A model generated the notes under the pieces. That model had not been told where the DNA came from. It did not search any database and was given only the letters and a program-made list of their open reading frames with translations. From NCBI GenBank assembly GCA_040954595.2, contig CM082587.2, forward strand, positions 10,669,403 through 10,733,402: DNA of 64,000 bases. Direction: 5' to 3'. Position numbers and translations under genes: made by a program. Origin of the DNA: Balanoglossus misakiensis (lineage: Eukaryota; Animalia; Hemichordata). Positions 40,617-61,530 of this stretch are shown piece by piece; position 1 is the stretch's first letter, and each line of letters begins with the position of its first letter.

Positions 40617-43600
40617 TTAATCCCTTTCAAATGTGTTAGGGAGAGGAGACAAGTGGAGTGTCTCTCCCATTACAAGTTCTACACATTTTTTTTTCAAAAA
40701 TGAAGGCAAGACAGCAATACTGTCATGTATAATATCATTTAGTGGTATTATGTGTGTACACTGTATACCAATTTCATTATCAACAAATAATGGCCTTCCA
40801 GTTAAATATCTCTTGACTATAACAAAAGGTTTTTCACTACAACCACAAGGATCGTCACCTTCACATACACAATCTGGCTTAACAATGACAAGACTTCTTA
40901 TTGCATAATAGTTCTGATCAGCTCCCTGAAAATGATGATTCACTCTCTTGAATGCCCTTGTATAACTACTTGTTGTAAACACAACACCCAATACCATGAA
41001 CCGATTGTAGTATTTAGCACTGACATTTGTCATACGATGGCCCACTAACTCCTCTATGGCTAACTGGTCAGTCAATCTTAATTGCTGTTTGCAGGGAGCT
41101 CCCATTGTAAGAATCCCCGAGCATCTTTGGTAGTGCCTCTCTAAAAGGACCATTCCACAAGACAATTTGTCAAATATTTTTCTCAGAACACCATTGTGAG
41201 GTATAATTGTTGATCGTCTTGATAAATCTCTCCAGCTACAGAAAGTATTTGCAATCTGTGAAGGTACATGTTGTGTTCCCTGAAACAGCTTCATGAGCAC
41301 CCCATTGTTACTTTCAAAGATAAATGATGATGTAGCCCAGAGTGGTGCCCAATGTCTAACACTGTTAGACAAATGTAATAATATGTGCATATTAAAGGAC
41401 ATACATTCTTTACCATATAGCTGTTCTGTTGTAATCACAAATTTTCTGATAACTTGCTCTGCCAGATCAATAGATTGTCTCGGTACATTTTCCTGGAGCA
41501 AGGTGTGAATCCCAAAGACCAATAAAAACCAATGGTTGATATAAACTGCAGGTAGCACACCTTTCAAAACAATCAATGAATAGAATAGAAGAAATGCCCT
41601 CCATTCTGAACCTTTCCAATATTTTCGTTGGTCTAATGAACGTGGTGTTCTAGTTATTTCATTTGGTGGGGACTGCTGTTGTAAACGAGAATTAACTAAG
41701 CGCTGCTTAGTGGGGGTTAAATACCATGGCTTCTGTTTATTTTCACTGTTAAGCCAAAGGTAGGTTACTTGTCTGACTACCCCTAACAAAACACAATGTA
41801 AATAATCTGGGACAAACCCTTGCACTATGTCAAAATTTGGAAGGAGCATACAGACACTGGGTCCCTTCACGCCTAACACTGGTTGATCATTTTCAACAGC
41901 CTGCCTGCTACACTCTTGAAATTGGTCATTATCCCTTGGCTCAGGATTAGCAAGGTCGTGCACACTATACACACGGGCATGACCATTGCCCTTGGCAATA
42001 TATTCCCCAGGGTGAAGGCACCAGTCACATCCATATTCCCCATTGTATTGCTTACAGTTTCGAATCATTGGTCGGGCTACGGAATCTGCAGTACACAATA
42101 ACACATGTGCACGTGTGTTGATCACCTCACCAGTATTTTGGTTTTGCCAGTTGAAGCCGTCGGTACACAATGCCACACACTCTTCCACAAATGGTGCCAA
42201 AAAGCAATCCATTTGTGGTTTAGTTTGACCGAACCACAGGCCTGGCATGAGGATATTCTTTTTTTGACATTTTGGTGTCAGTTCCGTAACTGTACATTGA
42301 ATGGGCCATACAGAGAAACCTGATGACTTAAAAGCTGGCACTCCATCACAATTCCAGAGAAGTGTTAAGTCATTATCCCCAACAATATTGTTAAGAAGAT
42401 CTTGATAAATTGACCCACCAAAAAGAGTTGAATTTGACAATTCACCACTTACGTTCTGATTTTCCATAAGATCCACAAGTTGATCCTTTAGTGACAACAT
42501 TATGAAAAATGTGCTATTCGTTAGAGAAGTTTGCTCACTGAATGGCTCATTACAACCAACACAAGTGTCAACTGTAATTTCCCCTTCCACCCCAATGTAT
42601 GTCATACAACTGCAACAATAAAAGTGCTTCTTACATGATACAGCAGTCTCTATGAAACATTTCTTGAAAAAATATGTTGTTGCTGGTACAGTTTCTGGAG
42701 CTGTCAAGTTAATGATATCCAATAAGTCCTGAACAGCATCTCTTGTTAGTCTGTGCCTGAGGATAAATGCCTGAAGAAGCAGACAAAGCTGGTCTGTTGT
42801 GACGTTTGTTTCTTCGTCGGCCTGTTGACACCCCTAAGAATGAGAAAAGGCAATATAAATAACACAAATATGTTCCTTAACCAATAAGGATGTTGCTTTT
42901 TTCAATTTCATGAGATAAATATCTGGTCACAGGACAAACTAGGAAATAAAACTGAATACAGCCATGCCACATGCCCTCACTTTAGCAGCAGGATCCTGTT
43001 ACAATAAAGCCCATAAAGGCATTAGCACCACAATTTACCCACAATTCCCTGTGATTGATACTATCATGTGTTACAACTTTTTCAATGCAATAACCAATGA
43101 ACCATGTCATTGAATCAAATAAAAATTTCGCTAGATTTTACAGAAATCTTAAAAAATACCATTTTATGTGCAAAAAAGTCACTCTCTAGGTATGTCGTCA
43201 TTTTGGGTACTAAATCAGGTTAACATACATTTTTTTGTCTTGTCAATTGGAAAAGGCATTATTAAAAAAGACATTTCGTTTTATTTTTTTAACAAACACA
43301 ACAATATCTCTACATGAAAGTGCACTGTGAGATAGACATTGTCTAATGTAACATGACTTACAAACCACACACACACACCAGCTATCCTGTGACTATGTGG
43401 TATGTTGAATCAAGAAGTAAGACTTACCAATTCATTATCAAGCAGATATGGTCCTATGCCAGTCACACCATTTTCTCCATTCTGCATGTTTGCATGAAGA
43501 GTCTCTCCATCGTCTGTTGTGTCTGTTTCTGCAATTATGTTTTCATTGTTGTCCTGTTCACTGCTACAAAAACTTTCACTCAGATCGTTGCCATGAACGG

Positions 43601-44532
43601 TTTCATCATCATCCAAATGTCCCTCAATATCAGTTTCAAAACTGCTGAGAATGTCATCCTCTGTGACATCACCATTATCAAGGCTACCTGTGTTCAGAGG
43701 TTCAGATCCAGCCCCATGATCACTACAAGCCAGAATTTCATCTTCATCTTGTTGAATTGAGGTGTCATTGTGCTGAAAGATGAAAACAACCACATATAAG
43801 GAAGCGCCTTCCATCAAATTAATGTACAAGAAAACTTTATCTGAAAATGAGTATGTGAATTTTTTTTTCTAGTCAGATCGATTACAAAAGCATAGAAAAC
43901 AAACTCATATTATTATGCGGGAGTCAATGTAAACCCCCACCCCCACCTCGGGCGATACAGGACAAATGTGGGAGATTCGACCGTTTTGGCCATGAAACTG
44001 TGCCCGAGGAGGTGGGGCAATTGCCTCATTTTGATCCCCCTATTCCTTTCTTGGAATTTATGAATGCCACCCATGGGGGTGGGGGAAATGTGGGGGATTA
44101 ACTTGTATCAGGTGGGGATTTTCAAGATTGTTTTGCCCCAGGGGTGGGGCATTTGACAGATTTGCACCAGACCATTCGCGATTCTTGTCGAAATTGTACC
44201 AGAAACTCGGGTCGGTCATGGAGGTACTAAGAGTACCTCGATCCATGGGTCGATCGGGCCGTTAGTATAAAATATCCCACAAACGCAGGATTACGTGTTT
44301 GTTTGCCTAAAGCAAACATCGGTTCTTGTGCATCATGCATGTCGCCATGGAGGACAACGTACGCGTACATGGTTTGGTTACTTTTAAAAAACATTGGAAG
44401 TGATCTGCAATTAGTACATACCTCAAAACAATTGTTATTACGATGCCGCCGCCTCGTCAAAGTTCTTTTTGGAATACCGGCTTCAGGATCCCTCAGGTAA
44501 CGTTTGTATGGACCACGCTTCGAGTTAGACAT
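40617..44532 (-). CDS. EnSpm/CACTA-type DDE transposase, 3 exons (44532-44422, 43772-43428, 42833-40617), about 890 aa
   Basis: Motifs WNCDGVP, WPI, ADSVAR, YNGEYGCDWC, PDYLHCVLLGV, WKGSEWRAFLLFY, NMHILLHL and SSFIFESNNG. GT-AG introns are both phase 0 and join the exons into one open frame. Exon 2 is acidic. Confidence 0.88.
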
Positions 44533-44828
44533 GTCTACGTCTTCGATCGATGTAAAGGTCAACGCGACTCAGCTGATCTGACGCTCAACTAGGAAATACG
44601 TACGTAACGTCCGGTCATGTGACGACCATGTGACTTGTTGAAAGTAGACAGATTTCGGAGGTAATGCGACTGTTTGATAGTAAACCTTCGAAAGCCACGC
44701 GAAATTAGTTTTCAAACAATAAATATATACCCCCAAAATATCCAACTTAAATGCAATATGAAAAATTAAAAAAAAAAAATACCCCGGGGTTGTATTGGAG
44801 CTTTTCCCAGCATGCATCACGGCGCGTC

Positions 44829-44836
44829 TATATAAG
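44829..44836 (+). promoter_or_regulatory. Putative TATA box of the BEN gene, separated from it by the Gypsy insertion
   Basis: TATATAAG. In the reconstructed empty site it lies 30 nt upstream of an Inr-like TTCA (A at 55837) and about 120 nt upstream of ATG 55927. Confidence 0.5.
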
Positions 44837-44847
44837 TGCCAACGACC

Positions 44848-45142
44848 TGTAGCGTTTTCCCCAACTTCAACGCCACGGAAAGGTTTCCCTAGTCAATGCC
44901 CGTAACGCATACTCACCTAGTTGAGTGCGTGCAGGCGGTCCGGGTCCAGAGCAAGTAGAGCGTGTAGCACCAGACCATGGACGAGACGAGAGAGAACCCC
45001 GACTTCCGGTCCCACGGTGTTATATATACCCTTCACGGGGTCACGTGACAGGTCACATAAGGGTCACCACCTAATCAGCATTTCCACAGGAATCTCCAGG
45101 CACTGGCATACTCCAGGTGAGGTTTTCTCCAGAAATACCACA
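44848..45142 (-). repeat. 3' LTR (295 bp)
   Basis: TGTAGCGTTTTCC...AAATACCACA on the plus strand. No differences from 55527-55821 seen by eye. Confidence 0.96.
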
Positions 45143-45160
45143 CTCTCCCCTGTTTTCTTC
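45143..45160 (-). other. Polypurine tract
   Basis: Minus strand GAAGAAAACAGGGGAGAG abuts the 3' LTR. Confidence 0.85.
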
Positions 45161-45523
45161 TGGAGCGATGGGTTCCGTGTGGACCTCTGGAAACTGGGAG
45201 ATTCCTTTCATAGATGGTTAGATGATTATGGACGGAACAGCCGATTCGAATCAATCCGGGATATGGCACGTTTTTCTTTTTTCTCTTTTGGGGACTTTTT
45301 AGAGCCATACCGTCGAGATCGATTCTTACACGATGGTGGCAAACACAATTTTACTGCCACTGGGGAGGGACCGGAAGTAACAAAAATCAACAAGCAAAAA
45401 TATCCCCAGTGGCGTGGGCCCAGATAAAAGGGAAAGACCCATGGAAGGCAGCTCCGGATGTAATATGGATTTCACAGTCAAACACCAATACTGCAGCCTA
45501 GGACCCCCCCAAAGATTACCCGT

Positions 45524-47893
45524 TCAGTCGAAGCCGTACAAGCGCCTGGTGTTGTTGGCAGCAGCTTCCAGTAGTTGGTTCAGAGGTATCCCCCGCCGCG
45601 CCGCAACCAGGACAGCAACATCTCCGATAAAGGCTGGAGTGTTGGGCTTGGCACCATTGGCCACAGGGAAGTACGGGGAGTCCGTCTCCAAGAGAAGACG
45701 ATCCTCTGGCACCGCCCTGAGTGCTTCAAGCTGAGGGGTAGAAAAAGTGTTAACACCAGCATTAAAGCTGAAGTAACAGTACGGATAATCCCTGGTCCAG
45801 CACTCGACCACAAAACGATCTCCAGTGAAGCCATGGAAGTGGATCAACTGCTCACTGGCGCAGTACTCACGAACGAGTTCAAGAGCCCTACGCCCGACAG
45901 CAGCAATACACACATCTCCCGTAGCTCCTCTGATGTGCAGAACCAGGACCTTCCGTGGATCACACAGGGAAAGGGCCAACCTGAACACGGTCTCCTGGAG
46001 AGGCCATTTGTCTGCCGCAACAGAGAAATCTAACCCAACCTCCCCAACTGCTGCCACCTGAGGGGATTGGATTAATTCCTTGAACTTCTCCAGTCGATTT
46101 CCAGTCAGTGTTGCCGCCTGTTTGGGATGTATTCCCACAGCAATTTTCCAACGCTTACTCCGGGAAAGATTGGTGGGAAAAGTCGTAGGGTCACAGTAAA
46201 CCTCCACCCCACCCAATACGGGAATCCCCGTCAGGGATTTCAGCATGGAAGGGGAGGAGACCACTACGTCCGATGTCACGCGGGTGACAGTACCCCGCCA
46301 CGAAGAAGTCAATCGATCCAAATGAAAATGAGAATCAAAGGCTCCTAGTGGCGAAGCCGCACTGCCAACGCATTTCACCTTACCCTTAGACTTAGTCGGG
46401 GGAGGACCTACATCCAAACGCTGGCTCCCTGAAGCAGAAGCAGTTGCCGAGGCAATCAAATCTTGCACTTCCTGTGATCGGGACACAGTGCACGACTTCC
46501 TGGGCAGAGGATGGCTTTGCTTGGTTTTCTTGGCCTGCAGAATCTGCCGATCCCCGCTGAAGAGGCCTGCAAACTCCGCTCTCTGCAAAGGAGAAAGAAA
46601 ACCCAACAAAACCAAGAGCACTCTCCAGTGAACGAGTACAGCGGGAGAATTTGGCGGGTGGAGTCCAAACCGTAGCATGGGCTCCCACCCCAAATCCCTA
46701 CATAGCTGATGCATCAAAGGAAAATACTCTTCCTCTACCGATGAAACCGGCGGAAGAAAGACATGGCCAAACCGCTTGAAATAAACCAACAAGCTCATGG
46801 CCGGTGAACCTGGTGATCCCCCAACAATCCAGGAATGGAGAATGCCCAAAGCATGGAACACTCTCCAAGCCTCGAAAGGATGATCACCCCGGAGTACCGG
46901 AGGAACATGCTTACCCAAGACATGAGCCCTGAGGTCCACAGTTACCTCCGTGCACTCCGGCAAGGGACAACGAACATGACCTGCCGGCGGTATTCCAAGG
47001 TAGCCTGGGGGAAGAGGAACGAGAGGGGGTTGCCCTAAACCAACCGGGAGAAAAGCCTCACTAAAGGGTCCGACCAGAGAAAGAGGGCCAGATCGTTGCA
47101 CCCGCTGACTCCCTGCGGAGCCAACAGGAGGCTGATTCAGAACCCCCTTCCCCTTCTTGCCTTTACTGGACTTCTTCTTACCCCGGCCGGTTGCCACCAC
47201 AGCCTTCCTCACCGCTGGTCCTCGTTGCGGGCTAGCCGTTTCCATAGGCGCAGGAAGTACTTCCGGCGCTGCCTCCACCGGGGCAGAGACCAACACCGGT
47301 TGCACCTCCGGTATGGATCCAACCGGTGGACATACCAGTTCCCCCGCCCCCGGCCCCCGAGCGCGTTGGACGTCTGGCAGAGGTGCTGCGGGCAGCACCT
47401 CTTGCGGGATATCTGAGTGCACAGACTCCCGCTGCCATCTTTCCACTTGCTCAGGGTCCTGAAGACGGAAGTCCCGGTACATACCATCAGGTGGAACTTC
47501 ATACGAAGCCGACTTCTTGGACCTTTGGGGAGCAGACCAGGTGTTTTCTCTTGGATTTGGATGAGGAAGATGTTCATCAATCCAAGCGCGATCAAAACCA
47601 AGGCAAAGATCGACGTCTTTGCGCAGGGCTCTGATCCATCCCCATCGCTTCCTCCGGGCTGCTATGGTGTATTGACCGATCAGGAGCTCCTGGCCCTGTG
47701 CCACAGACCGGTCAGGTCCCATGGAAATAACCCCGATGCCATTGACTAGCTCCCGAACTTGCCAAAGGAAGTCATTGGTGGTAGCATCGGAGATCTCCTG
47801 GCTAAGACGCTGGCGAGCGGCACTCGGACCAGTCGGAGCGACCTCCTTCCATTGGCGCTTGGGCGAGGCAGGGGGAGGAGACGAAGAAGCCAT
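45524..47893 (-). CDS. Gypsy ORF3: Pro/Ser-rich N-terminus, C2H2-like motif and C-terminal TatD-family metal-dependent nuclease domain (about 789 aa from ATG 47893; frame open to 47968)
   Basis: TatD motifs FDSHFH, VGIHP, AVGEVGLD, VLHIR, IHFHGF and LLLETDSPY in about 45527-46345. CPLPEC-x9-HVLGKH at about 46907-46969. Splice acceptor immediately before ATG 47893. Confidence 0.88.
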   Translation of the reverse strand: MASSSPPPASPKRQWKEVAPTGPSAARQRLSQEISDATTNDFLWQVRELVNGIGVISMGPDRSVAQGQELLIGQYTIAARRKRWGWIRALRKDVDLCLGFDRAWIDEHLPHPNPRENTWSAPQRSKKSASYEVPPDGMYRDFRLQDPEQVERWQRESVHSDIPQEVLPAAPLPDVQRARGPGAGELVCPPVGSIPEVQPVLVSAPVEAAPEVLPAPMETASPQRGPAVRKAVVATGRGKKKSSKGKKGKGVLNQPPVGSAGSQRVQRSGPLSLVGPFSEAFLPVGLGQPPLVPLPPGYLGIPPAGHVRCPLPECTEVTVDLRAHVLGKHVPPVLRGDHPFEAWRVFHALGILHSWIVGGSPGSPAMSLLVYFKRFGHVFLPPVSSVEEEYFPLMHQLCRDLGWEPMLRFGLHPPNSPAVLVHWRVLLVLLGFLSPLQRAEFAGLFSGDRQILQAKKTKQSHPLPRKSCTVSRSQEVQDLIASATASASGSQRLDVGPPPTKSKGKVKCVGSAASPLGAFDSHFHLDRLTSSWRGTVTRVTSDVVVSSPSMLKSLTGIPVLGGVEVYCDPTTFPTNLSRSKRWKIAVGIHPKQAATLTGNRLEKFKELIQSPQVAAVGEVGLDFSVAADKWPLQETVFRLALSLCDPRKVLVLHIRGATGDVCIAAVGRRALELVREYCASEQLIHFHGFTGDRFVVECWTRDYPYCYFSFNAGVNTFSTPQLEALRAVPEDRLLLETDSPYFPVANGAKPNTPAFIGDVAVLVAARRGIPLNQLLEAAANNTRRLYGFD

Positions 47894-47924
47894 GTCTGTG
47901 GACAATGAAGAGAAAGACAATAGA

Positions 47925-50900
47925 TTAAGAACATGCCGGACAAGTATAAACAGAAATCCTCCGCGCATCCCTGGTCGTCACCCCAACGCAGTGTCCATGG
48001 TACCACTCCGAGCAAGCATCACACTGGATCATGAACTCACCACGATAGGGCTTCCGACAAACACAATATAGTGTCGATGATACATCGGCGATCTCTGCCT
48101 TACCTGTACTATGCCGTTTGAGATTTTCTTGATACCTCATGACCCATTGGGGCAGGTCTCGGCTCCGACATAGCTTAAGTCGATCATGGTGGGCAGTTAC
48201 TATGGCCCGCTGGAATTTTACCTTATACAAGTATGGTGTTAACTTGTTGATAATAATCCCAGGTCCTTTCCACGGACGACTTAATTTCCGGCTTTTCCCT
48301 TTTCCTACTGCAGATTCAAGCATGTAAACGCAATTCCCTACCTCGTAAGAATAAAGGTTTACCCTTAAATCATAATTCCTCTTCATTACTTCTTGGGTAG
48401 ATTGAAGTTTGGTCCTTGCTATCTCATGCGCAAGCTTGATAGCGGACTCAAGCTCACAGACATGGTCCTGCGGCTCCTTACCTTTGACTGATGATAAGCC
48501 AAATACGAGGTCGGAAGGTTGATTGACTTCACGACCAAGCATTAGCTTATTGGGGGTGAATCCTGTATGTCTATTGATACAGGACCGGAGAGCTCCAGCA
48601 ATTTGTGATAGATACACATCCCAGTTTCGCTGAGTTTTGTCCACAAAACATCGAACTGCATCCATTATACTTCTGTTGGCCCGCTCCACTTGTCCATTTG
48701 CGGAGGGCCGGTAGGGTGTAGTCCGGGTCTTGTGAATGTGTAGCACGTCACAAATTGCGGAGAACAGTTTACTCTCGAAGTTAGCGCCCTGGTCAGTGCA
48801 GATCTCAAATGGATAACCAAATCGCGAAAAGAAGTTTTCCACGGCTGCATGTGCTGTTATTTCCGCGGTTTGGGATGGAAGTGGTATGCACTCCACCCAT
48901 TTCGTGAACTGGTCAACCATTACAAGAACACACTCATTCCCTCGTGCTGTTTGAGGTAGTGGGCCCAGGAAATCCAGATGGACACGCTCCATAGGGGCGC
49001 CAGCATGGAACTTGGTTAACGGGAATCGGGATCGACGCACAGGTTTCTTGCTAGTTGCACAGACACTACAAGAAGTAATAAACCGGGTGATATCTCGAGA
49101 CATACCATACCAGAAATATTTCTCCCTGAGTTTGGCTTGAGTCCTGGTAATCCCCTGATGTCCTGCAGCAGGAATGTTGTGATTTAACTCCACGACCTCC
49201 AACTGCAGCGATCTGGGCACAACCAGGGTCACACTGTCATCCAGTTTCCTCCATATGGTCCCATTTTCAATAAAGAAGATATCCCTGTTAATCCAATAAT
49301 ACTTGGCTGCCGGAGAAGACAAGAATATCTCATTACTGCTTGGTTCCACTTTCGATGTAAGCCATGGCCACAGAAAAATCAGATCTGCATCCTGTTGCTG
49401 GGCCTGACCGATTTCCTTGGTCGTATACCCCAAAAAGGTGCTGCCTTGGGTGTCTTGGTGAAACCGTGTAACAACACAACATTTTGGGGAGGATACGGTT
49501 TTAATTATCTCAACTGAGGGGTACATAGTATCCAGGTCACTAATAGTACCATCCTCAGGAGATAAAGGATCCCAGCAGATGAAATCCGATTCCCATGGCC
49601 ATTTTGGAAACTGGTTGGTGACTTGCAGTTGAGCAACCTTGAGGGTCGATTCGGTGTCCTTGCCCTGATAAGGAAATGAGACTAGTGGTACTACATCATC
49701 CACATCACTGGTAAAACGAGCCCAATTGTCATGTGCACGAGTACAGTAGTAACATCCCCCACAGGGTAGATTTCCTGGTCTAACTTCGATGGAAAAATCG
49801 CAGCAAACTTCACCATGGGGCTGGCGTGATAAAGCATCGGCGTTACTGTGCTTCTTCCCAGGTCGGTGTTGTACGGTCATGTTGTATTGGCTAAGTTCTT
49901 CCAGCCACCTTGCCAGTTGTCCTTGGGGGTCCTTGAACCGTAGGAGCCAGACAAGACTGCTATGGTCGGTTCTGATAGTAAATTGGTTCCCCAACAGAAA
50001 ATGACGGTACTGGCGAGTAAACCGTACCACTGCTAGCAGCTCCTTCCTGGTAGTACAATAGCGTCGTTGCTCAGGGGTAAGGGCATAACTTCCATAAGAA
50101 ATTACTTTTTCCTCCCCATTCTGCACTTGCAATAATTCAGCTCCAATGGCGAAGTCCGATGCATCTGTATCTAAAATAAAAGGATCGGTGTTGCTGGGCA
50201 AAGCGAGCACAGGGGCAGACAACAAAGCCTCTTTCAATGTGTCAAAAGCCTGCTGTTGTTCCTGACCCCAAATGAAAGCTTTTTTCCCGGTAACACCATA
50301 GAGAGGAACAGCCGTATTAGCGAAATCTTTGATGAAAGCTCGATGGTAATTGGCCAATCCCAAAAACTTCTCAACATCTTTGGTGTTCTTAGGTACGGGC
50401 CAATCCTTGACTGCTCGAATGGAACTTTTATCCAACTCCACATTGCCGTTCCTGATGATGCGCCCCAAGAAGACGACTTCTCTTTGAAAGAGATCGCACT
50501 TCTTGGGTTTCAGTTTTAGTTGGTAGTGACGCAGTCGATCAAAAACTTTCCGCAAGTAGGTCAGATGGTTGTCGAATGAAGTCCCAAGCACGAGAATGTC
50601 ATCAATGAAGGCTAACACGATATCCCAAGTAAGACCTCTGAGTACTAGATTGATGACTCTGGAGAATGTGGCTGGAGCATTGCAGAGACCAAAGGGCATT
50701 CTATTGAATTCAAACAAACCATATTTGGTGGTGAAGGCAGTTTTCTTCTGGTCTTCTTCCTTGATTCTAATCTGCCAATATGCTGAGTTTGCATCCAATT
50801 TTGAAAACCACGTTTGTCCTGCCAATGTATCCAGACATTCTTCAATCAGAGGTAGAGGGTAGACATCTTTGGTCGTGTGATCATTTAATGCACGATAATC

Positions 50901-52124
50901 GACACACCAACGAACTCCCCCATCACGTTTTCTCACTAGTACTGGAGCAGAAGCCCACTCGGAAATAGAAGGTTGGATAACCCCTGCATCTAGCATCTTT
51001 TGAAGATGTGCCTCTTCTTCCTGCGCAAAACACATGGGTGTCCGGCGCATCCGCTGTTTGACTGGCTTGGAATCACCGGTGTCGATCTGATGTTGAATGG
51101 TGGTGAAGTTCCCCAGATCAAATTCGGTTTTGGCAAACACATCTTCATACTCGATAAGTAGATCTTGCACTCGAGCTTTTTCTTCATCTCGTAGATGGAT
51201 GCCAGACCTCTCCAAGAGATCATGAAGATGTACAGGGATTTCGTCCTCCTCTGTTTCTCCGTTCCTTTCCTTGCATTCGACAGGTTGAAGTGAAACAGCC
51301 CCTACCTCTACCGCATGAGCGATGACCTTGCCTCTTCGAAGGGTCACAAACTCATCAGTAGGGTTGACTATGCAAACTTTAGGTGTCTGTCCTCCTGAAT
51401 GGAGTGTACGTGGTATCAGTACCGGTAGATCTTCTGTTGATTCAACCACATACTCAGACATGGAGTCACGCATAGCACATGGCAGTCTAATTACAGTATT
51501 TGGGGGGATCCGTACCCTATGCAAGAGAGCGACTTTTGCGATCTTGGGTTCCCCTATTACTGTACCAAACTGCAAGGGTATTATTTCATCCTCAATCCGA
51601 AGAATGTTGTTGAGTAAATCTAGATGGACCCCATGAGACCTAACAAAGTCGATGCCTAGGAGCATTTCGTCCTCAATGGGAGCCACATAGACTCGCTCCG
51701 AGTATAGACCTTTTCCCAATCGGATGTCAACCGGACCCACCAAAAACCCCTTCATCTTCAGCTCCCTTCCGGCAGTTTGGAAGGTCACTTGGTTAATAAT
51801 GGGCGGTTTAACATCTAACTGGTCAAAGAACTTATCAGAAATGATAGTTACTTCCGAAGCAGTATCAATTATCGCTTGGGTATCATGTCCTTGTATCCGA
51901 AGTGGAACGCGGTACATTTTACCGGAACGCAATTGACAAATAGTTAACAATTCATGTGAATCGTTAACCCCATCTACGGAAGACAACGCAATGTTACCGT
52001 CTCCTACCACCCTCAAACCGTGGCGCTCCTTCCGAGTTACCTCTGGAGGAAACACCCCGCTCTTTTGGATGGATGAAGGGATAACATCACTATGATGGTG
52101 GTGGCCTGTCGATCTGGGGGTCAC
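47925..52124 (-). CDS. pol: Gypsy Pol: aspartic protease, reverse transcriptase, RNase H, integrase and C-terminal PHD finger (probably translated by -1 frameshift from gag near 52154)
   Basis: Protease IIDTASEVT. RT CVDYRALN, MPFGLCNAPATF and AFIDD. RNase H TDASD, KELLA and TDH. Integrase HHCC, HLD / TDQG / VER and WKGP. Terminal C4HC3 PHD finger. Confidence 0.97.
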   Translation of the reverse strand: MTPRSTGHHHHSDVIPSSIQKSGVFPPEVTRKERHGLRVVGDGNIALSSVDGVNDSHELLTICQLRSGKMYRVPLRIQGHDTQAIIDTASEVTIISDKFFDQLDVKPPIINQVTFQTAGRELKMKGFLVGPVDIRLGKGLYSERVYVAPIEDEMLLGIDFVRSHGVHLDLLNNILRIEDEIIPLQFGTVIGEPKIAKVALLHRVRIPPNTVIRLPCAMRDSMSEYVVESTEDLPVLIPRTLHSGGQTPKVCIVNPTDEFVTLRRGKVIAHAVEVGAVSLQPVECKERNGETEEDEIPVHLHDLLERSGIHLRDEEKARVQDLLIEYEDVFAKTEFDLGNFTTIQHQIDTGDSKPVKQRMRRTPMCFAQEEEAHLQKMLDAGVIQPSISEWASAPVLVRKRDGGVRWCVDYRALNDHTTKDVYPLPLIEECLDTLAGQTWFSKLDANSAYWQIRIKEEDQKKTAFTTKYGLFEFNRMPFGLCNAPATFSRVINLVLRGLTWDIVLAFIDDILVLGTSFDNHLTYLRKVFDRLRHYQLKLKPKKCDLFQREVVFLGRIIRNGNVELDKSSIRAVKDWPVPKNTKDVEKFLGLANYHRAFIKDFANTAVPLYGVTGKKAFIWGQEQQQAFDTLKEALLSAPVLALPSNTDPFILDTDASDFAIGAELLQVQNGEEKVISYGSYALTPEQRRYCTTRKELLAVVRFTRQYRHFLLGNQFTIRTDHSSLVWLLRFKDPQGQLARWLEELSQYNMTVQHRPGKKHSNADALSRQPHGEVCCDFSIEVRPGNLPCGGCYYCTRAHDNWARFTSDVDDVVPLVSFPYQGKDTESTLKVAQLQVTNQFPKWPWESDFICWDPLSPEDGTISDLDTMYPSVEIIKTVSSPKCCVVTRFHQDTQGSTFLGYTTKEIGQAQQQDADLIFLWPWLTSKVEPSSNEIFLSSPAAKYYWINRDIFFIENGTIWRKLDDSVTLVVPRSLQLEVVELNHNIPAAGHQGITRTQAKLREKYFWYGMSRDITRFITSCSVCATSKKPVRRSRFPLTKFHAGAPMERVHLDFLGPLPQTARGNECVLVMVDQFTKWVECIPLPSQTAEITAHAAVENFFSRFGYPFEICTDQGANFESKLFSAICDVLHIHKTRTTPYRPSANGQVERANRSIMDAVRCFVDKTQRNWDVYLSQIAGALRSCINRHTGFTPNKLMLGREVNQPSDLVFGLSSVKGKEPQDHVCELESAIKLAHEIARTKLQSTQEVMKRNYDLRVNLYSYEVGNCVYMLESAVGKGKSRKLSRPWKGPGIIINKLTPYLYKVKFQRAIVTAHHDRLKLCRSRDLPQWVMRYQENLKRHSTGKAEIADVSSTLYCVCRKPYRGEFMIQCDACSEWYHGHCVGVTTRDARRISVYTCPACS

Positions 52125-52160
52125 CTCCAGGCCTAATCGGTGGACCCCTTCCCGTTTGGG
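52103..52160 (-). promoter_or_regulatory. Programmed -1 ribosomal frameshift signal (slippery heptamer plus H-type pseudoknot)
   Basis: C CCA AAC in the gag frame (52160-52154), 5-nt spacer, stem 1 GGGGTCCACC/GGTGACCCC, and loop GGCCTG pairing with downstream CAGGCC. The pol frame is -1 and open across this site. Confidence 0.8.
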
Positions 52161-54172
52161 GGTTCCGAAAAGGATACCCTACGCTCTGGGGAGGTGAAGC
52201 GACGTGAAGGTGAGGCAGTGCAGTCCCGTTGAAAATGTCCAGGTTTTCCGCAGCGGTAGCAGTTGGACCTACTGGGAGAAGGAGATCTTGATCGTGCACT
52301 AACCAAACCCTCAAGTTGAAGAGCCATCTTATTTAAGGTAGATGTAAGGTCCGCTAGGTGGCGCTCCATTCGTGACATCCGTCGCTCCACTTCACCAATG
52401 GGGGAGGCCTGCTTTGACGTCCCTGGAGGGGTGGTAGACATGGCTTTTACCTCAATAGCTTCCTCCCCGGTCTGAGGAGAATCCTGGCTTACATACCGAA
52501 CCCGAGGTGGTGGTGGTCGGTCAAAAATGGCTCGGCGGTTGTATTGATGCCATTTTATTAGGTTGATAGCCTGTTCCATCGACCGAGGGTAGTTATTGGC
52601 GGCATACTGCCCAGCGTGCTTGTCAATACACCCCTGACAAAAACGTAAAACAGCCTGTTCCATCATAAATGAATCGGATACTCTGCTGTATGCGTTGGTA
52701 GCTACAGTTAGGATCCTATCAGCCCATTTGTTCAGAGGCTCGTTGGGTTCCTGTTTCTGTTGCAGGAAATCCAAATGGGCTGTCTCTGGCAGTTCTTTAT
52801 AACCAAAGCGTTGCTCCAGTTTGAGCAACAGATCCATGTAACGAATATTCGGTTCGTTCTCCAGAATGATGGTGTAACAGTCCCCAGCTTCTCCATCCAG
52901 ACACCAGCACAGTTGTTCACGTCGTACATCAGCTGACCAACCCTGGGAAGTTGCATATTTGGAAAATCTCATGACAAAGGATTTCCAACTTCCCTCCCCA
53001 TTAAAATACAGATTTTTGGGGAAATGCCGGGGTTGGATAGCGTCTGCCCCCTGATGTCTTGGTGCATGGACTCCTGGAAGGGTATTTTCGGAATGAACAT
53101 TCTGTCTTGAAGATGTCCCAGCAAGCATGCCTGGCGTCAACCCATATGCCCGGTCACCCGCTCCAAAGTGTTGCGAAGTTGCAGACGGAACATTCATAGG
53201 CGGATTAGCTGTTCTATCCAATGAATGTAGACCCTGGGTGAATGTATGCGGTGCACTGCCATGCACAGATGATGATGGCATTCCAGGGTGAGCTATAGGA
53301 TGACCAGTATAGGATTGCGCCACCATCGGTGGTAGGGTGACAGGAAAATACCCACCCAACGATGGAACAAAATGCCACTGGACAGAGGAGGTTTGTGGGC
53401 CAGACCGCTCTCCACAATACGGAACCGATGGTGGAACACCCCGGGGGTGTCCAGTCACAGGCACCGATTGCTGAAAAGCAGAAGGGGTCACAACAGTTCC
53501 TGGTGCAGCTGGAACAGGTGATTGCAAACGAGAATGTGACCATGGGGTATTAACCACCGGAGCTGATTGTCGTGCATAAGTGGGCAGCGCAGAGGTCGTC
53601 ATCGTTTCCATCAGTGGAGTGCTGCCGGTGACTTGTGGTGTACGCAGTGATCTTCTAGGAACCGTTCCGGATGCTGGAGTGAACGCGACGGATGGTGCAG
53701 CAATTGCAGACCCTGGTGGGACCATGACCGCTGGGCCCGCGCACGCAAAATCATCATCAAATGACATCTGTCCAACATCCGACCCAGGACCATCCAGACC
53801 ACGCACAACACTCCTCCTTGATGACGGTGGCATGGATAACTCATCAATCTTCTTTACCACGTTATCGATGATAGGATCCCTCCGCGATGACCTTGGGGTT
53901 GCTGGAGGTTCGGGCAGCTTAGCCGGTGAAACCATGAAGCTTGCATCCTCCAATTCCACATCGGATGGCGGCCCGAACGGTGAAAAATCGACACGAGCCT
54001 TGAAATCTTCCGAGATGTTGATGTGGGGCAGGGCCAGAACATGTTCCCATGTAAGGTTTCCCATCCGTTCTCGTTCAGTTAGCAAGGTGTTGGCCGATGC
54101 TCTTCCAATCCCATAGATGGTAATCAACTCATCCAAAGTACAGTGGTTAATGTACACCCTAGCCATTGTCAC
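52133..54172 (-). CDS. gag: Gypsy Gag with N-terminal ComEA-like helix-hairpin-helix, capsid-like region and CCHC zinc knuckle
   Basis: N-terminal VYINHCTLDELITIYGIGRASANTLLTERERMG. Capsid-like FNGEGSWKSF...QEPNEPLNKWADRI. Knuckle CYRCGKPGHFQRDC. Confidence 0.92.
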   Translation of the reverse strand: MTMARVYINHCTLDELITIYGIGRASANTLLTERERMGNLTWEHVLALPHINISEDFKARVDFSPFGPPSDVELEDASFMVSPAKLPEPPATPRSSRRDPIIDNVVKKIDELSMPPSSRRSVVRGLDGPGSDVGQMSFDDDFACAGPAVMVPPGSAIAAPSVAFTPASGTVPRRSLRTPQVTGSTPLMETMTTSALPTYARQSAPVVNTPWSHSRLQSPVPAAPGTVVTPSAFQQSVPVTGHPRGVPPSVPYCGERSGPQTSSVQWHFVPSLGGYFPVTLPPMVAQSYTGHPIAHPGMPSSSVHGSAPHTFTQGLHSLDRTANPPMNVPSATSQHFGAGDRAYGLTPGMLAGTSSRQNVHSENTLPGVHAPRHQGADAIQPRHFPKNLYFNGEGSWKSFVMRFSKYATSQGWSADVRREQLCWCLDGEAGDCYTIILENEPNIRYMDLLLKLEQRFGYKELPETAHLDFLQQKQEPNEPLNKWADRILTVATNAYSRVSDSFMMEQAVLRFCQGCIDKHAGQYAANNYPRSMEQAINLIKWHQYNRRAIFDRPPPPRVRYVSQDSPQTGEEAIEVKAMSTTPPGTSKQASPIGEVERRMSRMERHLADLTSTLNKMALQLEGLVSARSRSPSPSRSNCYRCGKPGHFQRDCTASPSRRFTSPERRVSFSEPPNGKGSTD

Positions 54173-55511
54173 AGTTCACAATCTTAATTTACACAAGCCT
54201 TGGATGCAAAAACTTGAGCAAATTAAATTACCCTCTGATATGTTTAAACAAATCTAGAAATTTTCTTTAAACTTGAGAAAACTATCAGTTAATAGATTTA
54301 TACAAGTCTAACTAGTAAACTTGGAAAATCTATATGTTACTAACTGAATTCAATCTAAATTTAGACAAGTCCCCAAAAAGCCAAGAAATTCGGAAAAATC
54401 AAGCGAAGTGTCACTATGCAATCACACAAGCCACAGATTTCTCCACGAACTTGAATAAAGTGACGACACAGATCCAAATCCCCAATTCTAATCAATCTCA
54501 AAGCTCCTCAAAAACTTGAAGAAACTCGATAAATTCAGTACAGGGAAAAGGGACAAGTGCTGTTTTTCTCGTGGGAAGACTTTTTTTTCAAAAAGGCCGA
54601 AACAATTGCACAGAAAAAATTCCTACACTCTTGGATACAAGCACGAATTGCAGGACCCTAACAGTGGTAGAAATCTCCTGAACCCTTGCAGTAATTGTGA
54701 TATGCGATCACCCACTTTCAGGATGACCACAAATTATCACTACTGCAATATTACCCAAATGACCCACAAGGAAAATGCTCTCAGTGATAGAAGAAATTAT
54801 TGACCTGTTATATTTGTTGGTCGGTTTTTTTTTATTACTAGAACGTAACAATATTTTCGACCTGTTATATTTGTTGGTCGTTTTTTTTTTTTTTTTTAGT
54901 ACTGGAAATATCTAAGCTATCCCAGAAATATGCAACAATAACGAAGATATCCAGTAACAACAGAGTCAACGCTTCAAACTAAAATTCAAATTACCAGGTG
55001 GTAGGTAAATTTGCACAAGAATGACTGAATTCCCGCGTCAAACGCTATTCAAAGAAAAATTCCCGCTCCACAAATGTTATGCAATCTCTCAGCGAAATGC
55101 TTTCAAAAATAATCCCGACAAAAATGCAGTAAATAATCCACACAAATGCCGACACAGGAAGATTTAATTCAACAAAACGCATGAAAAACTACACACAAAC
55201 GCTGCACCGGAAAGTTCTAGGTTTCACGAATGACAAGAATTCCCAAACTCAAGTACAAAAAAACCCGAAACTAAATAAGCAAATTCCCGCACACACTTTC
55301 ACTTCCAACACAATTACTTACGATCCTTTGGTGATACGGAAAATCTGCTCACTCAGGTAAATCACACAAGCTACTCAAATTCACCGATGAGCACCAGTAC
55401 AGAAACACCACAGTCTCCGGGTAATTTTTTTTTTTCCTTTTACTTTTTCCGCCCGAAAACAATGGGTCTTGTACTTACCCACTCCCCTCAAAAATTCCGC
55501 AGGGAAGAAGT

Positions 55512-55525
55512 TGCTCGCAGCGCCA
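55512..55525 (-). other. Primer-binding site, probably tRNA-Ser
   Basis: Minus strand TGGCGCTGCGAGCA lies 1 nt inside the 5' LTR boundary. It is complementary to a Ser-type tRNA 3' end (...UGCUCGCAGCGCCA); isoacceptor not verified. Confidence 0.75.
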
Positions 55526-55526
55526 A

Positions 55527-55821
55527 TGTAGCGTTTTCCCCAACTTCAACGCCACGGAAAGGTTTCCCTAGTCAATGCCCGTAACGCATACTCACCTAGT
55601 TGAGTGCGTGCAGGCGGTCCGGGTCCAGAGCAAGTAGAGCGTGTAGCACCAGACCATGGACGAGACGAGAGAGAACCCCGACTTCCGGTCCCACGGTGTT
55701 ATATATACCCTTCACGGGGTCACGTGACAGGTCACATAAGGGTCACCACCTAATCAGCATTTCCACAGGAATCTCCAGGCACTGGCATACTCCAGGTGAG
55801 GTTTTCTCCAGAAATACCACA
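55527..55821 (-). repeat. 5' LTR (295 bp) with TATA box and candidate splice donor
   Basis: Direct repeat of 44848-45142. Minus-strand TATATATAA at 55707-55699, palindrome GTCACGTGAC at 55719-55728, and AG|GTGAGT at 55595. Confidence 0.95.
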
Positions 55822-55926
55822 GACCTTCTGACCTTCACACAGCTGATTTGCTCGCTATTGTTCACAACCATAACAACGCTCCGGCTTTCGAATTTTTCTA
55901 CAAACTGTTTTACCAAACGTCCCACA

Positions 55927-58900
55927 ATGAAGTACGCTTTATTCGACTTCTTCGAAGAACAAACTATTGAAGTAGGCGAGACGGCATGGATTGAGGATCT
56001 CGATGAACAGGACGCTAATGAGTTCGATTTGGAAGAAGAATGCGTCGTCTTGTGGCCAACGAAGAAACAAGGAAAAGGTTCTGCGACTTTGAGATATGCG
56101 GCTAGAGTGATCAAGTTCAGCGGTAAGAACTGTTTCCAAATTCTAAAACACTATGAAAGTTTTTCCAGTTGTAAACTTTTTGAAATACTTAGTCGTGCTG
56201 AAGGTGTTTCATTTCAAAAGTTTGAATTACCCGCCGTTTCCATTAAGTGTAAATACAGCACACATCTTGTTTACTTCCTGTCCATTGTTTTAAATTTGCA
56301 TAATAAAAGAGTTGCCACCAGGGACTTACATGTGTAACAGTGTTGCCCTGGTAATAATTGCGCAGAAGTTGTGATATTTTTGTTCTTCTTTCTAGATGAC
56401 AAACAACAGCTGTTGCGTCTTGCAAACGTATATGCCAAGAAGGGAATTGATGCATCTGTGACACTGAAGACTCCAGAATATGGTCGTGGCAAGCGCGAGA
56501 AGGCACCAAAGCGAATTATAAGTGACACTGAAGATGATGAGGAGGAGGAGGAATGTGTACCGGTAAGTTGATCTCTAAGATGGCATGTTAGTGTAGCTGT
56601 ATTCAATTCCTTTGCAATGCAGGGATTGATTTGTGATGTTATTCCTACACACAATGCACATTGGATTTTGAATCTATACCGCCACATGTCATCATGTGAT
56701 GATTTACCTGGACAAGTGTGTCCTATGCTAATGTCCACCTGTACCTAAGCAAAATTAACTTGCATGAGATCAGTGCGAATATGCACAGAAATATTTCAGC
56801 ATCATCTTGGGTGAATAACAGGTGCTCAATATAATTGTACACGTCTTTTGATACTTTCCAGCAAATCTCAAGAAAGAAGAAAAAGTCAATCAACAAGGAC
56901 CTGTCGTTAAGTCTCCTGAGGAAAATAAATAACAAAAAGCCAGTGCATTTAAAGAAAAAAATGGAGAGTGATGTCAACTCTGTCCTCTCAGTAAGTACTG
57001 TCAATAAGAGAGGTTAAGTTACTGCAGTCTGCGCACATTTCATTATGATTTAACTTAGTGAATTTCTTAGTTGAATTCCATCATTTTATCTTAAATTGTT
57101 ATCATGCATTTCTCTTGTTTGAATACTTCTTTTAGTTTAATTAATTAGTGTTTGTACCTGTAGTTTATTTCCTAACACATTGTATTGTTTATAACCCAAG
57201 CTGTTATGATTCCTGACCCAAGCTGTGAAGATAGTTATGACTATACTAAGTATCAGTTTCTCACATGTATCACATCAGAGCTAATAGCCAATCACATTAC
57301 AGTGCAGGGTATTGATACATATTCCTTACATTCCAGAGTGCCAGTTCCTCTTCATCGACATTTGACTCAGGAGAAGACTTGCGCCAAGAAAATAGGGCTT
57401 TAAGAGCAGAAAATGTTGCTCTTCGCAACACAATCACAGTCTTAAGAGGTAAGATAATATATTGTTGGACTGTCAATTATGTCTTTGCTGTATTGGTTCA
57501 GTTTAATAAACTGCTTAATTCGGGTGATTCCTAGAATATTAGCTTTGTGCTTTTGACCGCCTTTTTAGCTATTGGCCTAGGTGATAAATGGTGCTGGGAT
57601 TTAAATCAAATTCTTCTCTTATGGCCAGACATATGATGTTCAGTAAGGACTGAAATTGTGATGATTGAGCTCAATTAGTGTCTAGAAGCAGTAAATGGAT
57701 AGATTCTTCAGGAGCGGAATTGACAATTATATCGATACAAATCCTTCTTTTGAGGTATATTAACACTATTTTTTGTGTTTCTCAATGATACAGAGTTACC
57801 TAGCCTGATTGGTCAGATAGCGGAGTTAAAAAAGTCTTCTGGTAGTGGTGTAAAATTAGCAAGTCCAAGCAATGTTGCCTCGGTGGACAGTCAAGAGGTA
57901 TGTCATTATTATTAATTTTAATTTGACTATTGGCTCTTCAAGGGACAAAGTCTCTCCCTCGCTACCCCTTTTCCATTAATTATGCTTGATACAAGACACT
58001 GTTATGTTATTCTACATGTGGATATATAGTGAATTAATGTTCGACCAAACACAACTCTATCCCGTTTGTAGGATATGAGAGTAAAAATCTAGCCCAAATG
58101 AATAAATGGTTAACACCGATTATTCATTTTGGTGAGTTTCTTCACTCTTGTGTGTACAAGTGGGATGGAAGTTGTGTGTGGTTGAACGTTCATTCATTAT
58201 ATATCAACATGTAGAATAACATAACCGGTATCTTGTATCAAACATAATTAATGGAAAAAGGGCAGCTAGAGAGAGACTTTTTCCCTCTAATGAATTGAGA
58301 CACAATCACTTTAAAAAACTTACCTTACTTTTCAATCACTAACAAGTTGTCTGTGATGCAAATTCAGTCCATCATATGTCATATGCATACGAGAGCATTC
58401 CATAGACATTTTTCTGGTATAATATGTTCTAGTGAAAGTTTAATAATGGTACTTGGATTGATATTTTGGTTTATGTGTCTTTCTTTGGTTTTGTATTTGG
58501 CAAGTTGGTCAAAATATTGTTTCATGATGAAATCTTCCATTTCTGTTTACCATTTCCCCAATACAACTACATCATTATTTTTTTTTCAGATTACAGTTGA
58601 TGGTAAGGTTCTGGTGACTGCACAGCAGCTGAGATGCTGTGACAATTCGTCATAAAAAAAAATGACATACGATTTAATGAACGTTTTGTTCGATAAAGAA
58701 ACAATGAGAAGCCACTCATATAGTGGTCGTGTTTGTAATGCGGTGCCTGGCAGTGTAGCCAAGCCAGCGCTGAATGCTGAAAAGCTAAATGCCCTGAAAG
58801 GTATGTATCTGATGTGTTACTTCAATTTATCCAATGTGTTGCACCTTGAAAACTGTTGAGCTAAAATTGTCAGTTTTAGGAATTTTTGGGTGTTTATAAA

Positions 58901-59221
58901 TTTAACATCTATGGAGTTGCCAATGTTTAACACATTTTTTTTTAATTTGTACTATCATGGGCCAAGTAGAAATCCAGTTTGCTCATATTGGTGTTTCTGC
59001 AATCTTTGTAGTGTAAATTGGTAAATTCAAAACAGATTAAATTATGAAATATTTAAATTGAGATTGGGTGTGTGCAATATTTCAGTAATGGAAAATTGTT
59101 CAGATATTTATTTCTGGTTTTTCTCTCCACAGATTACATATGTAGCAAATTCGGCTGCAAGAAGGCAGAAGTGGAGCAACATATCAAAATGAAAATGTAT
59201 TCTGAATCCAAACACAAGTAG
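55927..59221 (+). pseudogene. CACTA accessory gene encoding a coiled-coil plus BEN-domain protein, 7 exons, 335 codons, with one in-frame TAA
   Basis: Exons 55927-56122, 56396-56562, 56862-56990, 57337-57448, 57794-57897, 58590-58800 and 59133-59221, all GT-AG with matching phases. BEN-like DLMNVLFDKETMRSHSYSGR...KPALNAEKLNALKDYICSKF. TAA at 58653-58655. AATAAA at 59241. Confidence 0.8.
57935..58290. repeat. Long imperfect inverted repeat (fold-back) in intron 5 of the BEN gene
   Basis: Arm 57941-58070 (agggacaaagtctctc...atcccgtttgta) is reverse-complementary to arm 58156-58286 (tacaagtgggat...gagactttttccct). Confidence 0.85.
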
Positions 59222-59454
59222 CAGATTTAGTTTAGTTAAAAATAAATAGTGAAAGTAGTGAGGTTTTTTTAGTATTATTATTTAGTTTTTGCTTTGAAAT
59301 TTGTTTTTTTTAAATGTATTCTTTTTTTCAGTTATTTGTAATAAAAATGTTTTTTCATTATAATTTTATGTGTTCTTTCATTTTTTTAATGTTTCACTGC
59401 TTCATCCATTTGGCGTGACAAGAACAATATACATGCATCAGAATGCAATGAAAT

Positions 59455-59963: not shown

Positions 59964-61530
59964 TGGCCTGGCTAATCAATGTTGACGCAAGGGTTGACCC
60001 CACCAAACACTCAAAATTGATGGGCACGACACTGGCCACTAGCTCTGGCCTGGCTAATCAATGTTGACGCAAGGGTTGACCCCACCAAACACTCAAAATT
60101 GATGGGCAAGACACTGGCCACTAGCTCTGGCCTGGCTAATCAATGTTGACGCAAAGGTTGACCCCACCAAACACTCAAAATTGATGGGCACGACACTGGC
60201 CACTAGTTCTGGCCTGGCTAATCAATGTTGACGCAAAGGTTGACCCCACAACCACTCAAAATTGATGGGCACGACACTGGCCACTAGCTCTGGCCTGGCT
60301 AATCAATGTTGACGCAAAGGTTGACCCCACCAAACACTCAAAATTGATGGGCACGACACTGGCCACTAGCTCTGGCCTGGCTAATCAATGTTGACGCAAA
60401 GGTTGACCCCACCAAACACTCAAAATTGATGGGCACGACACCCAGGCCACTAGCTCTGGCCTGGCTAATCAATGTTGACGCAAAGGTTGACCCCACCAAA
60501 CACTCAAAATTGATGGGCACGACACTGGCCACTAGCTCTGGCCTGGTTAATGAATGTTGACGCAAAAGTTGACCCCACCAAACACTCAAAATTAATAGGC
60601 ACGACACTGGCCACTAGCTCTGCATGGCCTGGTTAATCAATGTTGACGCAAAGGTTGACCCCACCAAACACTCAAAATTAATGGGCACAACACTGGCCAC
60701 TAGCTCTGCATGGCCTGGTTAATCAATGTTGACGCAAAGGTTGACCCCACCAAACACTCAAAATTAATGGGCTCGACACTGGCCACTAGCTCTGGCCTGG
60801 CTTATCAATGTTGACGCAAGGGTTGACCCCACCAAACACTCAAAATTGATGGGCACGACACTGGCCACTAGCTCTGGCCTGGCTAATCAATGTTGACGCA
60901 AGGGTTGACCCCACCAAACACTCAAAATTGATGGGCACGACACTGGCCACTAGCTCTGGCCTGGCTAATCAATGTTGACGCAAGGGTTGACCCCACCAAA
61001 CACTCAAAATTGATGGGCACGACACTGGCCACTAGCTCTGGCCTGGCTAATCAATGTTGACGCAAGGGTTGACCCCACCAAACACTCAAAATTGATGGGC
61101 AAGACACTGGCCACTAGCTCTGGCCTGGCTAATCAATGTTGACGCAAAGGTTGACCCCACCAAACACTCAAAATTGATGGGCACGACACTGGCCACTAGT
61201 TCTGGCCTGGCTAATCAATGTTGACGCAAAGGTTGACCCCACAAACACTCAAAATTGATGGGCACGACACTGGCCACTAGCTCTGGCCTGGCTAATCAAT
61301 GTTGACGCAAAGGTTGACCCCACCAAACACTCAAAATTGATGGGCACGACACTGGCCACTAGCTCTGGCCTGGCTAATCAATGTTGACGCAAAGGTTGAC
61401 CCCACCAAACACTCAAAATTGATGGGCACGACACCCAGGCCACTAGCTCTGGCCTGGCTAATCAATGTTGACGCAAAGGTTGACCCCACCAAACACTCAA
61501 AATTGATGGGCACGACACTGGCCACTAGCT
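59964..61530. repeat. Satellite array, right arm (about 19 monomers)
   Basis: Same monomer resumes in register after the transposon, mostly the GGCTAAT variant. Confidence 0.97.

Follow-up and report, generated by a model that had tools for sequence, protein, structure and literature searches.

In chromoviruses and in Tf1 a chromodomain is found at the integrase end, and Tf1 targets promoters. Here we describe a Ty3/Gypsy retrotransposon in which a chromatin reader likewise closes the integrase. It lies in a 64,000-nucleotide (nt) stretch of the genome of the hemichordate Balanoglossus misakiensis (contig CM082587.2), called the window below; coordinates are positions of its forward strand, and the element reads on the minus strand. 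Three accessory modules are present: a helix-hairpin-helix (HhH) module in Gag, a PHD finger in Pol and a TatD domain in a third open reading frame (ORF3). The reader is a PHD finger, predicted to recognize an active mark, not a chromodomain. A Pfam scan of Pol gave no chromodomain match and placed the PHD finger at the integrase C-terminus, which rules out a chromovirus.

PHD fingers have been described in other mobile elements (Gypsy-7a_cRei, REM1 of Chlamydomonas, Ginger1-9, CR1 and Chlamys), and an insertion bias was proposed for them (PMC9940879, PMC2836005, PMC8557442). These elements belong to other hosts and lineages, and the accessible parts of the reports mention neither HhH-Gag nor TatD. 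The Gypsy-like Juno and Vesta elements of rotifers resemble the present one in having an enzyme (DEDDy exonuclease or GDSL esterase) rather than env as third ORF; their ORF3s have intact catalytic residues and no membrane span, and are described as typically spliced (PMC5408684). In contrast, ORF3 of the present element is a TIM-barrel TatD protein with three added domains, TatD being unmentioned in the rotifer paper, and the lineage extends, judging by protein names, to molluscs, a brachiopod and echinoderms. The CERV protein of the C. elegans element Cer1 is likewise an accessory nuclear LTR-retrotransposon (LTR, long terminal repeat) protein made from a spliced message, but its described role is RNA export, with no mention of nuclease activity (PMC10309623). 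The class II TatD proteins YcfH, TATDN2 and TATDN3 share the HxH motif, the metal ligands and the fold with the TatD domain of ORF3; the latter differs in being borne by a retrotransposon and in being preceded by an N-terminal domain (N-domain), a C2H2 finger and a helical domain.

The MolGy and PolGy groups of molluscs and annelids were defined on reverse transcriptase (RT) and RNase H (RH) alone, and the main texts contain neither PHD nor TatD (PMC6238403, PMC8556966). Since these groups were drawn from the same hosts, the RT clade of the window element may well be one of them. A literature search, outside which lay Repbase, subscription journals and the supplements of the latter two papers, retrieved no description of TatD or HhH-Gag in such elements. 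The HhH/PHD/TatD variant is thus apparently undescribed, whereas its RT clade may already have a name.

Inheritance of the three modules

The element is intact and 10,974 nt long (44848-55821, minus strand). Its LTRs, 295 nt each, are 100% identical by alignment and have TG...CA ends on the minus strand. With LTRs, a short target-site duplication, a primer-binding site and a polypurine tract, the order protease (PR), RT, RH, integrase (IN), and a Gag that includes a capsid and a CCHC knuckle, it agrees in every feature examined with Ty3/Gypsy elements. The primer is presumably a serine tRNA. Three minus-strand frames are open (gag, 52133-54175; pol, 47925-52178; ORF3 frame, 45524-47977). A sequence-only reading of this DNA had reported identical LTRs, a perfect 4-nt duplication, the primer-binding site and polypurine tract, and three open ORFs with one accessory module each. 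All of this was confirmed, the modules by Pfam and by a profile built from relatives. The same reading had overlooked a -1 slippery site, a splice acceptor before ORF3, three further parts of ORF3 and a surrounding CACTA-type transposon.

Relatives were collected from a metagenome bin (G001) with 246 Pol matches; 100 stretches were fetched from it, plus five from two further bins, which were all that a search of 301 genomes in the family of G001 added. When 80 RT-RH rows were placed on a tree, the window element fell into a 13-row clade with an approximate likelihood-ratio (SH-aLRT) support of 100, and a careful tree of 30 rows gave 100/100; the bootstrap support of the clade is 100. All seven whole members of this clade carry HhH, PHD and TatD. 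When only contigs with enough upstream (HhH) or downstream (TatD) DNA were counted, HhH-Gag was present in 12 of 12 clade, five of five sister and none of 24 outside contigs, and the TatD gene in 16/16, 1/2 and 0/20, respectively. Among the listed G001 contigs picked on Pol alone, all ten whose match reached the Pol (PHD) end contained the ORF3 family. A locus of the second bin (L294) has the full HhH/PHD/TatD layout, acceptor included.

In the integrase tree (87 rows) PHD marks a 31-row clade (support 99; 28 rows with and three without PHD), the named members being proteins from oysters, abalone, whelk, sea urchin and acorn worm; this link across phyla is one of protein names, not of contiguous DNA, and most loci come from one host. 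In Mantel tests integrase distances correlated with the distances for TatD (r 0.52, n 12), HhH (r 0.59, n 9) and PHD (r 0.58, n 12; p<0.001 in each case). The elements very probably form one lineage in which the modules are co-inherited: HhH, PHD and TatD are inherited together and mark one clade, as the sequence-only reading had proposed. Neither a scatter of the modules over unrelated RT lineages nor a single chimeric copy, the two outcomes examined as contrary to that proposal, was found. The lineage is old and belongs to marine invertebrates; the copy in the window is young.

The traits are nested. HhH is the most widespread, TatD is shared by the clade with a single sister lineage (L198), and PHD is confined to the clade. 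The L198 lineage has HhH and TatD, in a shorter ORF3, and no PHD; another sister lineage (L196) is represented by a whole element with HhH alone. The three lineages form an open fork, so that the order of module gains and losses is not fixed.

The PHD-less sister lineage has a second, approximately 500-amino-acid (aa) family of zinc-finger-TatD ORF3 proteins (L198:7518-9032, L231, L232, L233 and P0197-P0232), whose barrel is interrupted by an additional Cys-rich segment. In neighbouring lineages, namely in L196 (1696-2472), L200 (553-1362) and L201 (399-1187), an ORF before gag resembles an SGNH/GDSL esterase (weak Lipase_GDSL_2 match, E 0.044).

ORF3 and its message

The TatD_DNase profile of Pfam matched ORF3 with E 2e-37. 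The homologue search gave 76 matches, the named ones from oysters, clams, scallop, abalone, mussel, Lingula and sea urchins. The family comprises at least 150 clusters at 50% identity; the best 150 all score above 320 bits, bacterial TatD proteins about 110-120 bits. Five of the six metal-ligand columns are kept in 73-75 of 75 rows and the sixth in 64 of 75, and all six ligands are intact in 92 of the 108 further representatives that cover them (126 in total). The ratio of non-synonymous to synonymous substitution rates (dN/dS) was 0.13 for the TatD domain in both unsaturated pairs and 0.48 for the N-domain; the TatD domain is under purifying selection. A structural model of it aligned with YcfH over 249 residues (Z 29.6, root-mean-square deviation 2.5; Foldseek E 8e-14) at an identity of about 25% to solved structures. 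ORF3 is quite probably an active nuclease.

The N-terminal parts of ORF3 evolve fast (24-39% identity between families vs 64-71% for integrase). The N-domain was modelled with a pLDDT of 87; its best Z score, 8.2, is ordinary for helical bundles, and no Foldseek match under E 0.001 was obtained. Neither the C2H2 finger nor the middle domain gave a usable Atlas match. In the P0053/P0346 cluster HhH is joined to ZnF-TatD and replaces the N-domain, a form that could be a deletion product, and P0073 and P0420 have CCHC knuckles in the linker; the swapped forms suggest that the front of ORF3 holds nucleic acid. Nothing in ORF3 points to a membrane-spanning segment, the most hydrophobic stretch (mean 1.93) lying inside a globular helical domain of the model. 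An env-type ORF3, as in errantiviruses, was ruled out because the product is a TatD protein without a membrane span. The gene model P0336 fuses PR-RT-RH to a divergent TatD.

In the TatD tree 64 element-type and unnamed rows were split from 17 bacterial-type rows (SH-aLRT 97). Unnamed stand-alone proteins are the nearest outside the element-type rows, no named TATDN2 being among the rows; an origin from a host TATDN2-like gene is plausible. When metagenome, viral and genome contigs were scanned with the ORF3 alignment, mostly bacterial TatD was obtained and the element type was present in two of 167 loci (L001 and L088). L088 (1-3008, 7762-10769) contains integrase-PHD and TatD without RT in the contig, repeats at 7,761 nt and has stops in several frames; it is a deleted derivative or an assembly circle. 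The bins G001 (L188-L285), G182 and G064, classed as bacterial, contain hundreds of animal retrotransposon contigs, many of them whole circular units, and the ORF3 proteins from these bins are labelled 'TatD family hydrolase' of symbionts in public sets.

A predicted splice acceptor precedes the ORF3 start. By a rule-based score ten of 11 elements have an acceptor no more than 20 nt from their first in-frame ATG, vs 153 of 896 control ATGs inside pol; five further elements without a motif match were left out of this scoring. With hand-picked starts it was present in 16/16 clade and 2/3 sister-type elements. The phase of the acceptor is mixed across elements (8/7/3), which fits a non-coding first exon and not a fusion; a spliced Pol-TatD or Gag-TatD fusion was ruled out on this basis. 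The conserved acceptor indicates that ORF3 is likely translated from a message of its own, and we consider it quite probable that this message is spliced.

Gag, Pol and the insertion site

Gag gave Pfam matches to PNMA (E 1.4e-6) and zf-CCHC (E 9e-7), and the Gags of relatives gave weak Ty3_capsid matches. The HHH_3 profile scored 14.9 bits (E 0.029) on this copy, below the Pfam cut-off of 27; in relatives it scored above the cut-off (51.9 bits in L294, 44.1 bits in L195). With an HhH profile built from 15 relatives, the window left out, this copy scored 48.4 bits (E 1.4e-11). Weak matches to ComEA and EEPD1 were obtained in the PDB (E 0.08-0.09). The module likely binds DNA without sequence choice.

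The catalytic motifs of Pol are intact, and the integrase retains D-D-E. Gag-Pol is predicted to be made by -1 frameshifting at a slippery heptamer at the end of gag. When the Gag ends of 16 relatives were inspected by eye, 14 had T TTA AAC or a close variant, one had C CCA AAC like the window, and one had neither in the stretch inspected.

The PHD finger (Pfam E 1.3e-9) was listed by Pfam in 115 of the best 120 Pol matches, the query itself having included the PHD. Its closest structures in the PDB are PHF2, BPTF, PHF8, DIDO1 and CXXC1 (E 7e-17 to 5e-14), which are readers of trimethylated lysine 4 of histone H3 (H3K4me3). The window PHD is a Cys4-His-Cys3 finger with Tyr, Met and Trp where PHF2 has them, and in the alignment to PHF2 these positions are Tyr/Phe in 113/116, Met in 116/116 and Trp in 116/116 rows. 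The dN/dS values were 0.03 and 0.11 for PHD (the two closest pairs) and 0.07-0.09 for RT. The PHD probably reads H3K4me3 and biases insertion. In one Pol of this clade (P0114, a single sequence) a Tpt1/KptA RNA 2'-phosphotransferase domain (E 4e-43) lies between integrase and PHD.

The element is inserted into a CACTA/EnSpm-type DNA transposon, where two ORFs begin head-to-head on either side of it (44532 and 55927). It separates a TATA box from an initiator-like site; once the element is removed, the A of this site stands 30 nt past the TATA box. TATA-initiator pairs of this kind span 29 of 32,926 other window bases. The position fits promoter targeting. The host transposon extends over approximately 40600-44847 and 55826-59300 and contains a 738-aa open transposase exon and a second, head-to-head, multi-exon ORF.

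As the 295-nt LTRs are identical, their divergence is at most about 1%. In sequencing run X1 (X1, X2 and X5 are one sample, which may be the one that the window came from) the depth, which is not copy number, was 178-297 for element contigs, 440 for the LTR and 21-29 for unique flanks. X1 contigs differ from this copy at 37/6,546 and 33/2,263 letters, the gaps in coding parts being in frame in 12 of the 13 rows shown, and one contig spans the left element junction. Several close copies are likely present in the sample. These copies and the identical LTRs bear out the recent insertion claimed by the sequence-only reading, and the element is likely still active. No empty-site joint was found among contigs at both element ends, a result compatible with a heterozygous as well as a homozygous insertion.

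Other repeats in the window are an 18-kb array of an 86-nt satellite (21461-39758, 93-96% alike) with a second block of the same family (59964-61530, 82-nt unit), several copies of a 216-239-nt repeat family with short 51-59-nt duplications (11346-16322), and a short inverted-repeat element of very high read depth, likely a miniature inverted-repeat transposable element (57941-58286). The features of the element and its surroundings are collected in Table 1.

Table 1. Features of the element and of its insertion site (window positions)
Feature	Position	Strand	Basis
CACTA/EnSpm-type transposase exon, first ATG likely 44532	40617..42833	-	Transposase_21 E 4.9e-9
TATA box of split promoter, outside element	44829..44836	+	sequence
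Target-site duplication GACC, left copy	44844..44847	.	sequence
3' LTR, 295 nt	44848..45142	-	100% identity with 5' LTR
Polypurine tract, adjoins 3' LTR	45143..45161	-	sequence
ORF3, 789 aa, ATG at 47893: helical N-domain, low-complexity linker, C2H2 finger, helical middle domain, TatD	45524..47893	-	ORF, Pfam
TatD domain, class II (HxH), ligands H-x-H, E, H, H, D and GxHP histidine	45527..46342	-	Pfam, alignment
C2H2 zinc finger (46907-46969) and conserved helical middle domain, no known family	46559..46969	-	alignment
ORF3 N-domain, conserved, all-helical, without clear fold match	47519..47866	-	alignment, model
Predicted splice acceptor, pyrimidine tract and CAG, two bases before ORF3 ATG	47896..47920	-	sequence pattern
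pol, PR-RT-RH-IN-PHD, -1 frame relative to gag	47925..52178	-	ORF, Pfam
PHD finger, integrase end, PHF2/BPTF/PHF8/DIDO-like	47931..48071	-	Pfam, PDB matches
Integrase zinc finger and D-D-E core	48501..49223	-	Pfam, motifs
Reverse transcriptase and RNase H	49878..51020	-	Pfam
Aspartic protease	51633..51917	-	Pfam
gag, 677 aa from first ATG: HhH, low-complexity region, PNMA/Ty3-like capsid, CCHC knuckle	52133..54166	-	ORF, Pfam
Predicted -1 slippery heptamer C CCA AAC, predicted stem after	52154..52160	-	gag/pol overlap
HhH module, ComEA/EEPD1-like, Gag N-terminus	53975..54163	-	profiles
5' leader, long, A/T-rich, candidate splice donor at 55478	54167..55509	-	donor not conserved
Primer-binding site, starts TGG, one base past 5' LTR	55510..55525	-	sequence
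5' LTR, with TATA box and second candidate splice donor (GT ~55595)	55527..55821	-	sequence
Target-site duplication GACC, right copy	55822..55825	.	sequence
Initiator-like site, outside element; ORF start at 55927	55834..55839	+	sequence

Possible roles of the modules

The best overall explanation, which we hold to be probable, is an old lineage with a young copy and three captured modules that likely work apart. Gag and frameshifted Gag-Pol would assemble a particle as in any Gypsy element, with HhH at the matrix position holding DNA or chromatin. The PHD would dock the integration complex at H3K4me3 nucleosomes and steer insertion to promoters. ORF3, made from the predicted spliced message, likely acts in trans in the nucleus as a zinc-finger-tethered TatD nuclease, which would clear single-stranded DNA (ssDNA) or RNA-DNA hybrids left by transcription and copying of the element. 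This substrate was assigned from the activities of class II TatDs, which are reported to be 3'-5' exonucleases on ssDNA and apurinic/apyrimidinic (AP) endonucleases (PMC10085689), and of TATDN2, which is reported to degrade the RNA of R-loops (PMC10711561). Clearing of by-products is placed ahead of counter-defence and end-processing as the job of the nuclease, tentatively and at somewhat less than an even chance.

According to the sequence-only reading the modules would form one coordinated system, HhH binding DNA, PHD reading active chromatin and TatD processing DNA ends. This part was not supported. The modules are on three proteins, ORF3 likely having its own message, and L198 without PHD, L196 with HhH alone and three of the 31 integrase-clade rows without PHD also count against it; modules that are co-inherited but separable speak against one obligate machine. 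A joint action in the integration complex, with TatD trimming or repairing the ends, could draw on the presence of all three modules in every whole clade member (7/7, plus L294), on the AP-endonuclease and exonuclease activity of TatD enzymes (PMC10085689) and on the fusion of HhH to ZnF-TatD in the P0053/P0346 cluster. However, ORF3 is outside Gag-Pol, the acceptor phase rules out a conserved fusion, the element has ordinary TG...CA ends and a clean 4-nt duplication, and sister lineages have one or two modules only. End processing by TatD is doubtful because the integrase keeps D-D-E and TatD is outside Gag-Pol, and the joint complex appears improbable.

Counter-defence, in which the ORF3 nuclease would destroy small RNAs, cytosolic DNA or other host detection and silencing signals as viral nucleases hide replication products, is the less improbable of these alternatives, though still rather unlikely. 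ORF3 takes the place of env and has a start and an acceptor of its own, which allow it to act early and in trans; the N-terminal parts are fast-evolving and swapped (HhH, CCHC), and a silencing role was considered for the rotifer DEDDy ORF3s (PMC5408684). Yet purifying selection on the TatD domain itself is plain, there is no known host partner or substrate, and the chemistry overlaps with that of by-product clearing, from which it differs only in the benefit gained. That the modules are passengers, captured once and carried without use, with PHD idle or merely steering from harm, would agree with the lack of a shown function for them and with the rotifer study, which reported no clear link of enzyme ORF3s to copy number (PMC5408684). 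The ligands and cage positions are, however, kept across families about 40% alike, the acceptor is kept, and dN/dS is 0.03-0.13. Conservation appears to have largely refuted this reading already, and its probability is very small.

Several points weigh against the explanation of an old lineage with three modules likely working apart. Five of the 16 TatD-positive clade contigs had been fetched for their TatD, a bias from which the ten-of-ten count on Pol alone is free. Clade labels were assigned by hand on the basis of the trees or, where RT and IN were missing (four contigs), of the PHD. The contiguous loci are three bins plus the window, with 98 contigs from one bin, so that the module counts are not independent events. 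L196, being whole without TatD and PHD, indicates that neither is required for such an element. A search for a conserved splice donor was negative, donors not being enriched on the sense strand across 13 leaders. The dN/dS values are based on two pairs per domain, and that of HhH was 0.39 in its only unsaturated pair. When this copy was compared with X1 contigs (32 ORF3 sites within the first 40 of 108 difference rows), the TatD part had four non-synonymous and three synonymous sites, and the constraint on TatD shows no sign at this depth. The role of the Tyr, Met and Trp positions as a methyl-lysine cage is a presumption, and insertion into a promoter was observed at a single site and recognized only afterwards.

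Gypsy elements of animals are commonly described as having gag and pol and, at most, an added env. The wide lineage described here has retained a separate gene for a likely nuclease and, on its integrase, a predicted active-chromatin reader. If the PHD does steer insertion to promoters, it would be an animal counterpart to Tf1 and chromoviruses, and if TatD acts on hybrids or ssDNA, a step of retrotransposition or of host evasion could be named that uses the element's own enzyme. Many uncharacterised TatD proteins in the gene sets of molluscs and echinoderms, as well as some assigned to bacterial symbiont bins, are retrotransposon products. It is conceivable, as a speculative reading, that the lineage carries a promoter-targeting, self-cleaning kit from captured host parts: an H3K4me3-reading integrase that inserts into core promoters, a chromatin-gripping Gag, and a spliced TATDN2-like nuclease resolving R-loops or DNA by-products. 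If so, these R-loops or by-products would otherwise expose or stall the element, and TatD genes annotated by the hundred as 'host' genes in bivalves and sea urchins would be retrotransposon genes.

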